The notes under the pieces were generated by a model that had not been told where the DNA came from, made no database searches, and worked only from the letters and a program-made list of their open reading frames with translations. Of a DNA stretch of 64,000 nt, positions 1,896 to 63,120 are shown piece by piece (position 1 is the stretch's first letter; the number at the start of each line of letters is the position of its first letter). The position numbers and the translations under genes were made by a program. The DNA comes from Candidatus Saccharimonadales bacterium. GTDB taxonomy: Bacteria > Patescibacteriota > Saccharimonadia > Saccharimonadales > JBGSXW01. The stretch is from positions 286,591 to 350,590 of the forward strand of contig JBGSXW010000002.1 in the NCBI GenBank assembly GCA_041751215.1, written 5' to 3'.

Positions 1896-3316
1896 CGTTT
1901 AACCTCGATGGTAGCTTTGTCCATCATCTTAGCCTTGCCGGCTGCATAAGTTGCGTCGTCGGTAACTTTGGCTGCTACGCTGTTTGCAATCGACTTCATG
2001 CCCTCGATATCAACAACTGCATTAGGAGGAATGTCGAGTGTGGCATCAAGCATGAGCTGTTGGGCTGTAACAGAGTAGCTCTCGCCTGGAGCCTGCGTAA
2101 ATATTTCGAATAAGTGTTGTCCGAGCTCTAAGTCTTTTCTAACTTCAAGTGCTAACTCCGAGCCAAAGTGAGAAAATTCAGCCGCTCGTTTGTATTCGCT
2201 TAAAGCCCGAATAACACGGTCGCCTAGCAGCTTTTGCCGAGCGCTGTGCCCGCGCCCACCAACACGAGATACCGAAAGCCCAGTGTTAATTGCTGGTCTG
2301 GTGCCGTCCCTAAAAATCTCCATGTCAAGAATTAGCTGCCCATCGGTTATAGACATGATGTTGGTTGGTAGATAAGCTGTTACATCGCCCCCAGGAACCA
2401 ACACAATTGGCAGGGCGGTTAACGATTTGTGACTCGATTTTAGGCGGCCGGCACGCTCAAGCAAAGACGAGTGAGCAAAAAACATGTCGCCCGGATACGA
2501 GTCGCGGCCTGGATTTCCGTTAGCTAGCAGCGATATCTCTCTGTAAACCAAGGCGTGTGAAGTCAGGTCGTCGTAAATAATAATGACGTCTCGACCCTTT
2601 TCTTGCCAAAGATACTCAGCCAGTGAGCAGGCAACGTATGGTGCCAGGTAAGACATCACCAGCGAATCAAACATCGTAGAAACTAGTACGATCGAGTTTT
2701 TAAGCGAATCATGTTCGCCAAGTTTTTTTAGCAAATCATCAACATCAGCTCGTCGTTTAGAAATAAGACAGTAAATTACAATTCGGTCGCTGTTTTTTTG
2801 ATTAAAACCGAGTTGGCTCATTAGGGTGGTTTTGCCAGACTTACTGTCGCCGAGCACGGCGATGCGCTGACCTAGCACGATTGGAAACAAAGCATCAACA
2901 GACGTAATGCCGGTTTCTAGTTGCTGACCTAGCAGCTCGCGCTCCATGATTCCCGGTGCTTTATTAAACACTGGCCAGGTCGCATCGGCTGCAATGGCTC
3001 CTTTGCCGTCGAGCGGCTGTCCGGTCGCAGAGACAACCCGGCCAATGTAGTCCTCACCAACTTTGGCAACTAGCTCGTGGTGCTGAACCACCACGCCCAT
3101 GCCAGTTGTTAGCGGCTTGCTGCCAAGATGCAAGGCCACGGTGTTGTCCTCGTTTACGACATGAACGACTCCTTTGCTACCATCGGCAAACATCAGTAAC
3201 GCCTGAGCAGTAACCGGCTGTAAGCCACGGATAGTAACCAAAAAGCGGTTAATAGACATTACCTCGCCAACCGGCTGACCCTGATCTACTAAGTATTTGA
3301 AGTGCTTGTTAGCCAT
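1892..3316 (-). CDS. atpA: ATP synthase F1 alpha subunit
   Basis: 474 aa with Walker [11 protein letters not shown], an alpha-type core ([17 protein letters not shown]) and the expected operon position. Confidence 0.95.
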
Positions 3317-4785: not shown

Positions 4786-5553
4786 TCAGCCCTCGAACAT
4801 GTGCGGCTTGCCGCGAGGTTCGTCTGGTGTGTCGATTTTTTCGCCGCGGCGAAAACCCCAGGGCCCACCGGCCAGCCAAACCTTTCTCGGCTGGCTCTCC
4901 ACCTCGATTGGCGGGTCCTTGGCGAAGTCGAACTGATCGACCTCGTCGTCGGGGAAGCCCGCAGTATTCCCGCAGCTGGGGCAGGCGTAGCCGGAGCCGG
5001 CCTTGACCATGGGAACGCCGCAGGTCATGCACATCGGTGCCTCCGATGCCAGCGTGGTCGGGTCGTCGTCGACGGCACCGACAGGCGGGTTGGCACCGAT
5101 CGCTTCCGAGAAGTCGTCGAAGACCTTGTCGGGGACGTCGGCGTCCAGAGCCTCGGGGCCACGGAGCATCCGATCGACTTCGGCTTCGGCGCCCTGGAGG
5201 GGCACGACGTCGCGGTCGACATCGGTCTCGGACGTCATCACGGCACGGACGCGGAAGCTGATGTTGCCCGGGATGACCTTGTCACGCAGGCAGTCAGCAA
5301 CCTTGACGAGCAGCGGTGGTCCGATCTTGTTCGCGTCGGCGGGACACGACGCTGTGGGCCAACCGACCACCACGGTGATCTGGCGATCGCCGCTGTCGTA
5401 GGGACCAGCCTCGCTGAACGTTGTGTCGCACACGGATCGATCGAGCTGCTCCATCACGATCTTGGGAAGCTCGTTGGCCAGACGGTCAAGGTCCATGGAG
5501 CTGAGGACCGAACCGCGAAAGTTCGGGTAGTAGTGAACGTGGACCGACAACAT
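4786..5553 (-). CDS. Hypothetical acidic protein with a C-terminal-half zinc ribbon (GC-rich island)
   Basis: 255 aa with RBS AAAGGAG and the ribbon CMTCGVPMVKAGSGYACPSCG. About 63-70% G+C by hand count of two lines. The overlapping long ORFs on both strands are shadows. Confidence 0.7.
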   Translation of the reverse strand: MLSVHVHYYPNFRGSVLSSMDLDRLANELPKIVMEQLDRSVCDTTFSEAGPYDSGDRQITVVVGWPTASCPADANKIGPPLLVKVADCLRDKVIPGNISFRVRAVMTSETDVDRDVVPLQGAEAEVDRMLRGPEALDADVPDKVFDDFSEAIGANPPVGAVDDDPTTLASEAPMCMTCGVPMVKAGSGYACPSCGNTAGFPDDEVDQFDFAKDPPIEVESQPRKVWLAGGPWGFRRGEKIDTPDEPRGKPHMFEG

Positions 5554-24184: not shown

Positions 24185-24259
24185 GGCCCCTTCGTCTAAT
24201 GGTTAGGACACCAGGTTTTCATCCTGGCAATAGGAGTTCGATTCTCCTAGGGGTCACCA
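24185..24259 (+). tRNA. tRNA-Glu (anticodon TTC), CCA encoded
   Basis: Cloverleaf read by eye: acceptor GGCCCCT/AGGGGTC, anticodon loop TTTTCAT, T-arm GGAG-TTCGATT-CTCC. Confidence 0.9.
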
Positions 24260-24420
24260 ACAAAAAGCCTCGCCCTTGTGGTGAGGCTTTTTGTTGGTAG
24301 CTTTATGCGAATCGAACTTCGTAGCGCGTAGCGCGGAGTTCGCTATTCAAGCGAGCCCGCAGATGCTCGCATCGAGGACGAGCGAAGAATATATCATATA
24401 TTCTCCTATTCCCTGTTGTG
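24260..24420 (+). repeat. tRNA-trailing GC-rich module, Glu copy (split pseudo-T-arm)
   Basis: CCA-sequestering hairpin, then H1 GAACT-tcgta-GCGC-gta-GCGC-gg-AGTTC, then GGAGTTCG (the tRNA-Glu T-stem 5' strand plus TTCG), then a 57-nt conserved insert, then ATTCTCCTA (the rest of the tRNA-Glu T-arm). Confidence 0.75.
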
Positions 24421-24427
24421 GATACGG

Positions 24428-49088: not shown

Positions 49089-49178
49089 AAAGCAAGCAGT
49101 TGGTGTCTCTTGTTGAAATAAGAATACTCGATCGATCGGCAAGATAGTGCACGCTGGCAGGCCGATCGATCAAGTGCT

Positions 49179-49353
49179 CTGGTACGCCCGGACGGATGGA
49201 CCTTCGGTCCGCTTCCTCATGTGCTCGATGCGAGCATCTGCGCACACTCGTCACGAACGAACCGACTGCTTCGCAGTATGCGGTTCAAATCCGTGCTCGA
49301 GAGAATCGAGCTGAAAAATAAAACCACCCGCAGAGGGTGGCTTAATTTTTCAG
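49179..49353 (-). repeat. tRNA-trailing GC-rich module, Arg copy (bounded by 19-nt direct repeat)
   Basis: Plus-strand CTGGTACGCCCGGACGGAT occurs at 49179-49197 and again at 49354-49372 (the tRNA-Arg 3' end). H1 spans 49258-49286 and the 60-nt insert spans 49198-49257. Confidence 0.8.
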
Positions 49354-49354
49354 C

Positions 49355-49431
49355 TGGTACGCCCGGACGGATTCGAACCGCCGACCCCTTGGTTCGAAGC
49401 CAAGTACTCTATCCAGCTGAGCTACGGGCGC
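49355..49431 (-). tRNA. tRNA-Arg (anticodon TCG), CCA encoded
   Basis: Minus strand GCGCCCG...CTTGG-CTTCGAA-CCAAG...GGCGG-TTCGAAT-CCGTC-CGGGCGT-A-CCA. Confidence 0.9.
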
Positions 49432-57590: not shown

Positions 57591-57676
57591 GCAGGGTTAG
57601 TGAAGCGGTCAAACACGGCAGACTGTAAATCTGCTGGCTTATGCCTTCGTAGGTTCGAATCCTACACCCTGCACCA
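57591..57676 (+). tRNA. tRNA-Tyr (anticodon GTA), long variable arm, CCA encoded
   Basis: Acceptor GCAGGGT/ACCCTGC, anticodon loop CTGTAAA, T-arm GTAGG-TTCGAAT-CCTAC. Confidence 0.9.
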
Positions 57677-57847
57677 AACTAATAATCCGGCCGGAGGTCG
57701 GGTTTTTAGTTTGGTATTGAGTTTAGAAAGAGAACCGTGTCCGCCGCAGGCGGAAGGTTCGGTGGAGCAGGAACACGCGCAAAAGTTTACTTTGAGCATG
57801 TGACTGCGGAGAAGGACGAAGTCCGCTATCCCTCTCCCTGCACCAAA
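57677..57847 (+). repeat. tRNA-trailing GC-rich module, Tyr copy
   Basis: H1 GAACC-gtgt-CCGCC-gca-GGCGG-aa-GGTTC (57732-57760), a 66-nt insert, then ATCCCTCTCCCTGCACCAAA (57828-57847), which matches 17/20 nt of the tRNA-Tyr 3' end at 57659-57678. Confidence 0.7.
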
Positions 57848-63042: not shown

Positions 63043-63120
63043 TGGGGTGCCTGATGGGACTTGAACCCACGGCCTTCGGTACCACAAACCGACGCTCTAA
63101 CCAGCTGAGCTACAGGCACC
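63043..63120 (-). tRNA. tRNA-His (anticodon GTG) with encoded G-1 and CCA
   Basis: Minus strand G-GTGCCTG...TCGGT-TTGTGGT-ACCGA...GTGGG-TTCAAGT-CCCAT-CAGGCAC-C-CCA. Confidence 0.9.

Follow-up and report, generated by a model that had tools for sequence, protein, structure and literature searches.

We analyzed a 64,000-nucleotide (nt) stretch of contig JBGSXW010000002.1 from a Candidatus Saccharimonadales bacterium (the window), in which most tRNA genes are followed by a related, structured module. Five tRNA genes were found in the window by ARAGORN and Rfam, and a module lies behind four of the five (tRNA-Glu, tRNA-Lys, tRNA-Arg, and tRNA-Tyr), each in the orientation of its tRNA (Table 1). 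This shared, co-oriented architecture had been described in an initial annotation made from the sequence, and it holds at all four positions. The fifth gene, tRNA-His, had been proposed as an internal control that lacks the module; neither our covariance models (R1, built from 65 copies of the module, and R2, which models only its insert) nor inspection of the sequence found a module there, and both models match the window at the four module sites only. The spaced motif GAAC-N20-GTTCG occurs 6 times in the window, compared to 0.54 occurrences expected. No tRNA was found in 8 kb of sequence beyond the window edges. The organism belongs to an isolated lineage, with the nearest MurB relative on record being 70% identical.

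On the 3' side of each tRNA, the order of parts is a hairpin that pairs with the CCA end, a linker of 10 to 25 nt, and a module of approximately 100 to 130 nt. The module itself contains a complement of the T-loop, a GC hairpin with a GNA triloop, a sense copy of tRNA positions 51 to 57, an insert (M), and a tail that copies tRNA positions 59 to 76. The complement and the sense copy pair as the outer stem (GAACY/RGTTC) of a hairpin, H1, around an inner GC stem of 4 to 5 bp. The 3' strand of H1 equals the 5' strand of the cognate T-stem plus TTCG (GGAGTTCG, TGGGTTCG, CGGTTCG, and AGGTTCG), and its 5' strand reaches further upstream as the complement of T-loop positions 59 to 61. In the Glu module, we read GAATCGAACT as the complement of the T-loop and T-stem sequence AGTTCGATTC, and GGAGTTCG as tRNA positions 50 to 57. 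M is 57 nt long in the Glu copy, 65 nt in Lys, 60 nt in Arg, and 66 nt in Tyr; the core of the Glu M consists of CGCAG, a 4-bp stem with a tetraloop, and CGAG (positions 24358 to 24376), and the 18-mer GCAGATGCTCGCATCGAG is identical at 24359 to 24376 on the plus strand and 49224 to 49241 on the minus strand.

Reading the four copies confirmed what the initial annotation had said of the H1 stems, the compensatory changes in the inner stems, the identity of the 3' strand with the T-stem plus TTCG, the lengths of M, and the shared 18-mer. Its outline of the module needs some correction. The hairpin that pairs CCA and an A-tract with a T-tract and TGG has the sequence described, but it is not part of the module: since the same hairpin is also present behind tRNAs without a module, it is the usual host tRNA terminator. 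The trailing pseudo-copy, which had been said to cover the whole 3' third of the tRNA, is confined to the positions that track the cognate gene, 50/51 to 57 and 59 to 76. The tail begins exactly at position 59, and A58 is missing.

The predicted fold of the module is a three- or four-way junction in which M branches off at the place of A58. For the Arg copy, minimum-free-energy RNA folding gives a four-way junction, with the complement strand paired to the two halves of the interrupted T-loop copy. We evaluated pairing in four drawn helices on a plain MAFFT alignment of about 65 divergent copies and found that 87.9% of cells pair, compared to 69% when partners were shuffled and about 35% when the strands were slid. 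Double-sided changes in the four helices numbered 304 versus 102, and RNAalifold independently recovered the same helices, so that covariation in H1, which the initial annotation had predicted for other genomes, is present there. In the middle hairpin of M, an outer stem and a 4-bp stem both covary, and a C/A mismatch and a GCA/GA internal loop are conserved; the 4-bp stem bears a loop of the CTTG or TTTA type, the invariance of which was partly imposed by the search pattern. The H1 triloops are mostly C-GNA-G. Counts of G-T and A-C pairs were similar, with 37 and 36 overall and 13 and 7 in the cleanest stems. The structure is real; the strand on which it acts and the kind of nucleic acid are not settled by pair counts or folding.

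The modules track the tRNA that they follow. Over 51 cognate module-tRNA pairs, with shuffled partners as the control, sense-copy positions 51 and 52 agree with the neighboring tRNA in 98% and 96% of pairs, compared to 35% and 59%, respectively, after shuffling; agreement is partial at position 50 and lacking at position 49. Mean tail identity is 14.9 of 18 bases, versus 10.0 for shuffled partners, and 20 of the 51 tails are perfect. These measurements bear out, well beyond the window, the earlier suggestion that the H1 3' strand and the tail follow the identity of the neighboring tRNA. The complement strand tracks positions 59 and 60 and has 1 or 2 mismatched bases opposite positions 57 and 58, where M departs from the sense strand. 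The base that precedes the tail differs from the universal A58. Mismatches within the tails concentrate at positions 59 to 60 and 73 to 76, and positions 61 to 72 are nearly invariant, a clustering at the edges that would suit the borders of a recombination identity block. All of the module-bearing tRNAs were called intact.

Table 1. Positions of tRNA genes, module parts, and related features; coordinates without a prefix are window positions.
Feature	Coordinates	Strand	Remarks
tRNA-Glu(ttc)	24185..24259	+	ARAGORN; Rfam tRNA 62.7 bits; cognate gene of the Glu module
Terminator-type hairpin behind tRNA-Glu	24256..24298	+	ACCA and A-tract pair with T-tract and TGGT; host feature
Glu module, first part	24309..24342	+	In order: GAATCGAACT, inner hairpin GCGC-gta-GCGC, GGAGTTCG
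Glu insert M, 57 nt	24343..24399	+	Small hairpin, core, distal hairpin
Glu tail ATTCTCCTA	24400..24408	+	Equals tRNA-Glu A58 to A66; remainder of copy diverged
tRNA-Lys(ctt)	40970..41046	+	ARAGORN, Rfam
Terminator hairpin behind tRNA-Lys	41042..41085	+	20 pairs, CCA included
Lys module	41099..41211	+	R1 70.4 bits; anti strand ACTCGAACCCA, inner hairpin CGGC-gta-GCCG
Lys module, later parts		+	TGGGTTCG 41124-41131; M 41132-41196 (65 nt); tail degenerate
tRNA-Arg(tcg)	49355..49431	-	ARAGORN, Rfam
Bidirectional terminator hairpin behind tRNA-Arg	49309..49355	-	Sequence and terminator calling
Arg module	49198..49294	-	R1 69 bits; anti strand ACGGATTTGAACCG 49294-49281; inner hairpin CTGC-gaa-GCAG
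Arg module, later parts		-	CGGTTCG 49264-49258; M 49257-49198 (60 nt)
Arg tail ATCCGTCCGGGCGTACCA	49180..49197	-	18/18 identity with tRNA-Arg positions 59-76
Long hairpin behind Arg tail	49110..49170	-	CTTGATCGATCGGC...GCCGATCGATCGAG and T-rich run; no call under the strict terminator rule
tRNA-Tyr(gta)	57591..57676	+	ARAGORN, Rfam
Terminator hairpin behind tRNA-Tyr	57673..57715	+	CCA included
Tyr module	57726..57827	+	R1 67 bits; GAACC 57732-57736, inner hairpin CCGCC-gca-GGCGG
Tyr module, later parts		+	AGGTTCG 57755-57761; M 57762-57827 (66 nt)
Tyr tail ATCCCTCTCCCTGCACCA	57828..57845	+	15/18 match to tRNA-Tyr positions 59-76
tRNA-His(gtg)	63043..63119	-	Module-less; internal control
Long-H1 subfamily sites	L030:5832-5979; L037:150-294; L082:1523-1615; L049:113-197 and 2353-2437		
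Long-H1 subfamily sites, further	L066:6270-6354; L076:6102-6202; L088:7510-7594		
Pseudo tRNA 3' halves	L041:4505-4545 and 5095-5130; L048:5270-5300; L046:7760-7790; L047:3745-3775		
Pseudo tRNA 3' halves, further	L033:6675-6650 (minus); L089:1810-1840; L049:2265-2300		

A pattern that fits all four copies was scanned against 185,579 species-representative genomes. It matched 83 places, 8 of which are chance matches in GC-rich unrelated genomes and about 75 of which are true modules. Almost all true modules are in metagenome-assembled genomes (MAGs) labeled Saccharibacteria, Saccharimonadales, or Patescibacteria, across many genera; the few found in otherwise labeled MAGs, mostly on short contigs, may reflect mis-binning. 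The family is thus real and specific to the Saccharibacteria lineage. In 580 kb of sequence (fetched loci plus the window), R1 detected 98 copies. Those adjacent to a tRNA all lie 20 to 75 nt on its 3' side and in the same orientation, and the module was always tRNA-linked and co-oriented, as the initial annotation had anticipated. The tRNAs with a module represent 16 amino acids. R1 detected a module behind 70 of the 134 tRNAs in the examined loci (52%), and several R1-negative tRNAs have a T-loop complement (e.g., GGGGAATCGAACC or GGGACTTGAAC) and a hairpin past the terminator (L034:7355-7440, L057:4450-4530 on the minus strand, L076:6765-6850, and L051:2755-2830). Since such diverged variants exist, the occupancy of 52% is an underestimate.

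We found no match to a described family. At the gathering threshold, Rfam gave only tRNA matches in the window and 18 module-bearing loci; at E values up to 10, it gave weak matches for the Glu copy that score far below the gathering thresholds and lie on or next to the terminator hairpin. Full-text searching of the literature found no description of such an element. The family is apparently undescribed, in line with the earlier proposal that it is not a known annotated noncoding RNA. A loose pattern gave 9 chance matches and no true module in 2.9 million viral contigs, which makes a phage attP site unlikely.

We also looked at how the modules relate to transcription signals. Terminators were called behind three of the four module-bearing tRNAs in the window, and promoter-like sites were called upstream of two window tRNAs. 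At the four window copies, no sense-strand promoter was called between terminator and module, and no conserved -10 element was found among 66 aligned linkers, which are rather GC-rich. In tRNA operons, where modules lie between tRNA-Phe and tRNA-Gly or between tRNA-Leu and tRNA-Val, the CCA-pairing hairpin lacks the T-tract. Judged from these signals, the module of a stand-alone tRNA would be transcribed only by read-through, and an operon module is necessarily part of the precursor. A role at the DNA level is favored by the terminator in front of the module, the lack of a sense promoter, the lack of a G-T excess, and the C-GNA-G triloops.

A terminator-like hairpin lies within about 25 nt behind 19 of 32 well-preserved tails. 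Several of these second terminators (e.g., in L023) share the CCA-A-tract...T-tract-TGG form of normal tRNA ends, so that a tail and its hairpin look like the original tRNA 3' end and terminator pushed downstream. The long hairpin behind the Arg tail in the window may, from its sequence, be a displaced or shared terminator. Tails are often decayed or truncated, particularly in operons. As a separate observation, the minus strand at the tail end of the Glu module (window positions 24393 to 24422) has a promoter-like site, TCCACA-18-TATGAT (9/12), from which antisense transcription would run through that module; none was called inside the Lys, Arg, or Tyr modules.

Other loci contain arrays in which the unit is repeated. 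The order tRNA, hairpin, module, tail, hairpin, module, and tail is seen in L075 (behind tRNA-Arg and tRNA-Ser), L076, L046, and L091; behind the L075 tRNA-Arg, both tails are perfect, yet the two modules are only 61% alike. The tRNA (or a tail) and the next module are separated by 1 to 3 open reading frames (ORFs) in L041, L046, L047, L033, L077, L049, L011, and L089. This cargo includes an APH-type kinase, GNAT acetyltransferases, an ABM monooxygenase, ArsR with a 417-amino-acid protein, a Fic protein, an amine oxidase, an AAA kinase, and several unknowns. Further cargo is a GIY-YIG protein. Where we read the junctions of arrays, the last part of every cassette is a degenerate 3' half of a tRNA, of its own type, behind which come a terminator, module, and tail. 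The pseudo 3' half has the form GTTCCA(N)ACCT...[last 5 to 9 nt of the tRNA, through CCA] in L033, L046, L049, and L089 and the form of GTTATAAC in the tRNA-Asn cassettes of L041 and L048. It is unlike a real T-loop yet conserved between genomes, which suggests a site with a function of its own. In two genomes, the same terminator, AGCATAAGCACTTTGCGAAAGCAGAGTGTTTTTGTTTT, lies behind tRNA-Asn (L041:3572-3610 and L047:3089-3127) and is followed by wholly different cargo, so that tRNA-Asn looks like a hot spot of cassette exchange.

Comparisons between copies give some evidence of recent copying. Of 65 same-genome pairs, 12 are above the 99th percentile of between-genome identity, some of them behind different tRNAs. 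In one MAG, tRNA-Ser(CGA) and tRNA-Ser(GCT) have approximately 190 nt in common, from the T-arm via the terminator, linker, and H1 into M. The module blocks form mosaics whose breaks fall at GGTTCG and CGAG. The similarity of M has reached saturation, at about 0.66, and two copies that follow the same tRNA are no more alike than other pairs. All 96 matches to R2, in 611 kb, fall within R1 modules. Because of this, we do not consider M a separable element, as the initial annotation had implied by describing it as an insert; it was never found without H1.

The anatomy, tracking, arrays, cargo, and displaced terminators that we observed are brought together if the module is a nonautonomous integrative DNA module, the attachment site of small insertions at tRNA genes that carry no recombinase of their own. 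We favor this reading tentatively, as one that may well be right but that falls somewhat short of an even chance. It is close to one of the possibilities raised in the initial annotation, att sites or scars of miniature T-loop-targeting integrative elements, which is the best-fitting of those suggestions: the tracking, arrays, cassettes, and second terminators agree with it, and the recombinase-bearing relative that it called for was not found among the examined ORFs. Known precedents are integrases that target the T-loop and the tycheposon model of islands. To judge from the sequence, the anatomy is that of a Campbell-type integration whose identity block extends from the T-loop as far as the 3' end; we found the flanking direct repeats of the tRNA 3' end and the intact tRNA expected of a Campbell-type element, but no element-encoded integrase among the examined ORFs.

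As we picture it, an insertion would have at its left border the 18 bases of the tRNA's own 3' end, which complete a working tRNA and are followed by a terminator, and at its right border the tail, a second 18-base copy that would usually be accompanied by the older, displaced terminator, with the module just left of the tail. Repeated insertion events would give tandem arrays, and larger versions would bring accessory genes. The end of M is unlike the target as a duplex, and likeness to the T-loop arises only on folding; for this reason we propose that folded single-stranded DNA is the active form. The module would fold as single-stranded DNA into stable hairpins, and its complement strand would pair with positions 51 to 56 on one side of M and positions 59 to 61 on the other. 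This pairing would rebuild a duplex that imitates the target T-loop, with M as a side branch at A58. A hypothetical recombinase encoded elsewhere would then exchange strands at about positions 58 to 61, much as a folded attC or CTX attP site does with a double-stranded site. Folding in vivo, the chemistry of the crossover, and the enzyme are the parts of this scheme that we infer.

Searches for an enzyme, for empty sites, and for recent movement yielded a number of results that weigh against an integrative module. No recurrent integrase, transposase, or reverse transcriptase family was seen among the Pfam families listed for 150 ORFs within 3.5 kb of modules, and about 15 cargo ORFs likewise gave no Pfam match to a recombinase, transposase, or reverse transcriptase. 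We found no excised circle and no pair of empty and filled sites with alignable flanks, the loci being at most about 77% identical over their longest aligned stretches. Median identity is 0.667 for same-genome copies and 0.658 between genomes, such that most copies are equally divergent; this implies slow turnover or the retention of many old copies. Old yet structurally kept copies could indicate a host function. At two tRNA-Leu loci of L023, the H1+M block is identical and the hairpin, linker, and tails differ; this pair in particular, and the mosaic blocks elsewhere, seem to fit frequent recombination between modules better than the movement of one fixed unit. A simple Campbell model requires an element-borne acceptor strand that fits the target. 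In addition, both strands fold about equally well, as DNA or as RNA, and the C/A mismatch and GCA/GA internal loop of M would also fit an RNA or a protein-binding RNA.

Further searches bear on the same question. Among the 61 window ORFs, no recombinase, transposase, or reverse transcriptase appears in the best 25 of 72 Pfam families, a number at which single matches could be hidden. None of the examined loci has a longer relative of the module that carries a recombinase or TnpA/TnpB, which the initial annotation had thought might exist, and no Cas1-like gene was seen near modules. In L053, an ORF for a 95-amino-acid GIY-YIG nuclease (2676 to 2963, minus strand) ends about 25 nt before a long-H1 module; we rejected this endonuclease as the driver, since only one weak second match turned up across all loci. 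In the P0090 species, there is no tRNA-Arg at the syntenic place. Logan contigs from the same organism end at window positions 49403, 57619, 57647, and 63102, within tRNA-Arg, tRNA-Tyr, and tRNA-His. We considered whether such short-read contig breaks mark module polymorphism and rejected this, because the breaks fall in tRNA genes and not in modules; they are an assembly effect, since k-mers are shared between tRNAs.

Among known systems, island-building integrative elements at tRNA genes, such as tycheposons of Prochlorococcus and P4-type elements with T-loop integrases, resemble the present insertions in keeping the tRNA intact and in carrying, at the end away from the gene, a direct repeat of its 3' part. 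Shared, too, are tandem arrays split by partial tRNA copies, accessory cargo, and a streamlined genome. In contrast, the Saccharibacteria insertions have no integrase in or beside them among the examined ORFs, most are about 170 to 200 bp, and a single module family uses at least 16 tRNA identities. A covarying hairpin module precedes the repeat here, and none is described in the tycheposon preprint as far as we searched it (bioRxiv 10.1101/2020.12.28.424599). That preprint presents partial tRNA repeats and degenerate remnants as common beside tRNA genes of streamlined genomes (bioRxiv 10.1101/2020.12.28.424599).

The attC sites of integrons, including clusters of attC sites lacking integron integrases, are similar to the module in conserving structure over sequence, in forming imperfect hairpins with conserved mismatches, and in size (approximately 57 to 141 nt). 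They are also similar in having one site per cassette, in arrays of small promoterless accessory genes, in clusters without an adjacent integrase, and, if our scheme is right, in acting as folded single-stranded DNA. However, the R''/R' boxes (RYYYAAC/GTTRRRY) were not found; the module boxes, (T/C/A)GAAC...GTTCG(N), are derived from the T-loop, have G and C rather than Y and R at their fourth positions, and form the inner rather than the outer part of the stem. The junction is at T-loop-copy positions 58 to 61, not between G and TT, the platform would be many tRNA genes rather than one attI beside intI, and there was no Rfam or attC-type match. With the attP site of CTX phage and other elements that exploit Xer, the module shares two inverted segments that pair to imitate a double-stranded target, a crossover region that is unpaired, and an element without its own recombinase; unlike CTX attP, it mimics the T-loop and not dif, and it is not accompanied by phage genes.

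Other small elements are less similar. Miniature inverted-repeat transposable elements (MITEs) and other cis-mobilizable elements are also small, noncoding, repeated in the genome, and occasionally present as near-identical copies elsewhere, and they depend on a trans-acting enzyme, as the module would. However, the ends of the module (the linker or complement strand versus the end of M) are not inverted repeats, its specificity for tRNA 3' ends is strict, and parts of it are rewritten to match each target. Palindrome-associated transposable elements (PATEs) of the IS200/IS605 group and TnpB guide loci differ in that the module has an 18-nt direct repeat, M never occurs alone, and no transposase was seen. 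The PATE/MITE-like single-stranded-DNA element considered in the initial annotation fits the module less well than an att site does. Class C group II introns land just past intrinsic terminator hairpins, which are recognized as single-stranded DNA stem-loops. The module is similarly placed, 10 to 25 nt behind a terminator, but it has no intron domains, reverse transcriptase, or Rfam intron match. As judged by its own promoter and terminator, the module is not an independent small-RNA gene, since no sense promoter was called; a terminator does lie behind 19 of 32 tails. The module is not a member of any family tested and works most like a cassette attachment site.

The main alternative is a structured RNA, made by read-through of the terminator or as a spacer of tRNA operons. 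In one version, H1 and M are a scaffold that presents an 18-nt 3' guide, identical to the tRNA 3' end, and aims a trans-encoded effector at the tRNA gene, with TTCGA of the T-loop as the adjacent motif; in another, a regulatory or processing RNA pairs with the T-arm. Strong covariation of three helices with conservation of unpaired nucleotides would be expected of such an RNA, as would an orientation that is invariably that of the tRNA, a terminator behind many tails, and the operon hairpin without a T-tract, which makes cotranscription of the module obligatory there. Known transposon-derived guide RNAs are about the size of the scaffold plus an 18-nt tail. We nevertheless consider an RNA unlikely. 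At stand-alone tRNAs, a strong terminator stands ahead of the module and the linker has neither a sense promoter nor a conserved -10; G-U pairs are not in excess over A-C pairs, Rfam has no matching family, and there is no recurrent candidate effector gene nearby. An RNA also leaves the arrays with cargo and the displaced terminators unexplained, and tails are frequently decayed or truncated, notably in operons. The tRNA-mimic RNA suggested by the initial annotation is accordingly weakened by the terminator ahead, the missing sense promoter, and the pair counts. Were the module an RNA after all, the candidate phyla radiation would have a new and widespread class of tRNA-linked RNAs.

The remaining alternatives concern how the DNA arose, and we regard each as less probable still. 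A transposon-like nonautonomous insertion, with staggered cuts at 58/59 and past CCA and gap repair that yields an 18-bp target duplication, gives a very simple account of the tails as direct repeats local to each tRNA, perfect in 20 of 51 cases, with the tRNA left intact, and it would explain how an identical H1 and M came to lie behind two tRNA-Leu genes with their own acceptor sequences. Casposons reportedly integrate at a tRNA 3' end with target duplication, and there, too, the 3' end is duplicated and the tRNA left intact; the module differs in its 18-nt repeat with fuzzy edges, the lack of terminal inverted repeats, and the lack of a Cas1 gene seen nearby. A fresh duplication followed by random decay would spread mismatches evenly, whereas those in the tails are bunched at positions 59 to 60 and 73 to 76. 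Furthermore, no Cas1-like or transposase gene was seen near modules, near-identical blocks in L023 and L077 differ in their left part (hairpin and linker), and the complement and sense copy of positions 51 to 57 are unexplained, so that target duplication is improbable. On another reading, M is an independent miniature element, either intron-like or a PATE of the IS200/IS605 type, that targets T-loops and inserted after TTCG in a dispensable 3'-half duplicate from an older integration. This would account for the location of M exactly between sense-copy positions 57 and 59 and for its subterminal hairpins, and simple tRNA 3'-half duplicates without M are known in another species. The reading is very improbable, as R2 matches occur neither in pseudo 3' halves nor in simple duplicates nor elsewhere outside R1 modules, A58 is missing rather than displaced, and neither tnpA nor tnpB is among the families listed. 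Least credible of all is that the modules are functionless, inert scars of ordinary integrase-mediated islands, of the kind that leave partial tRNA repeats and remnants beside tRNA genes in streamlined genomes. Compensatory changes keep four helices over about 65 divergent copies, positions 51 and 52 match the tRNA in 96 to 98% of copies, and the family is recognizable over many genera; neutral scars would not keep the structure, so the helix covariation and tRNA tracking argue against them.

If the module is an attachment site as we favor, its novelty lies in the module itself, as integration at tRNA genes is already known. There is a real chance that it is a new kind of recombination platform. 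A more specific proposal, that Saccharibacteria tRNA genes are landing platforms of an integron-like cassette system with a folded single-stranded DNA site that copies the T-loop of the tRNA it serves, is doubtful. If that proposal is true, one trans-acting recombinase could place small modules and accessory-gene cassettes behind most tRNA genes of a tiny genome, its targets being set by nucleic acid mimicry. Saccharibacteria genomes are very small, and their gene gain and loss are poorly understood; a cassette attachment site would explain the variable genes beside their tRNAs, such as kinases, acetyltransferases, the Fic toxin, and arsenic-resistance genes. It would also be the third example of a folded single-strand recombination site, after integron attC and CTX attP, and one that is retargeted by copying part of its target. 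Whichever reading is right, R1 can serve at once as a marker, both to annotate these loci and to detect cassette arrays in metagenomes.

Variants of the module and other rearrangements were also seen. In a long-H1 subfamily (Table 1), the sense copy extends into the variable loop (for example, GATCGCCGGTTCG equals tRNA-Asp positions 45 to 57), and the inner loop reads GAACGAAGTGA.... In a variant that R1 missed, directly behind a tRNA-Asn (L046:6498-6665), H1 is reduced and the middle hairpin, GCGCAGgtaaaatagcaaacgtgtttgcatattttcCGAGCAC, is much longer; a tail and two more modules come after this variant. A 75-nt unit lies behind tRNA-Arg(TCT) in another Saccharibacteria species; it is made of a 50-nt insert, which carries the perfect hairpin CATAACTTG...CAAGTTATG and no M-type module, and a 25-nt copy of positions 52 to 76. 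Two strains have one copy of this unit and a third has two (L094:16188-16460, L095:14614-14890, and L099:9071-9420); this strain-level variation in copy number indicates that tRNA 3' ends are actively rearranged in this group. In L059 (4020 to 4250), a tRNA-Phe module is followed by a tRNA-Gly 5' fragment of about 26 nt (GCGGGTATAGCTCAGTTGTTTAGAG), approximately 125 nt of unrelated sequence, and a complete tRNA-Gly, a partial 5' duplication that points to insertion of another kind, in the region of the D-arm.

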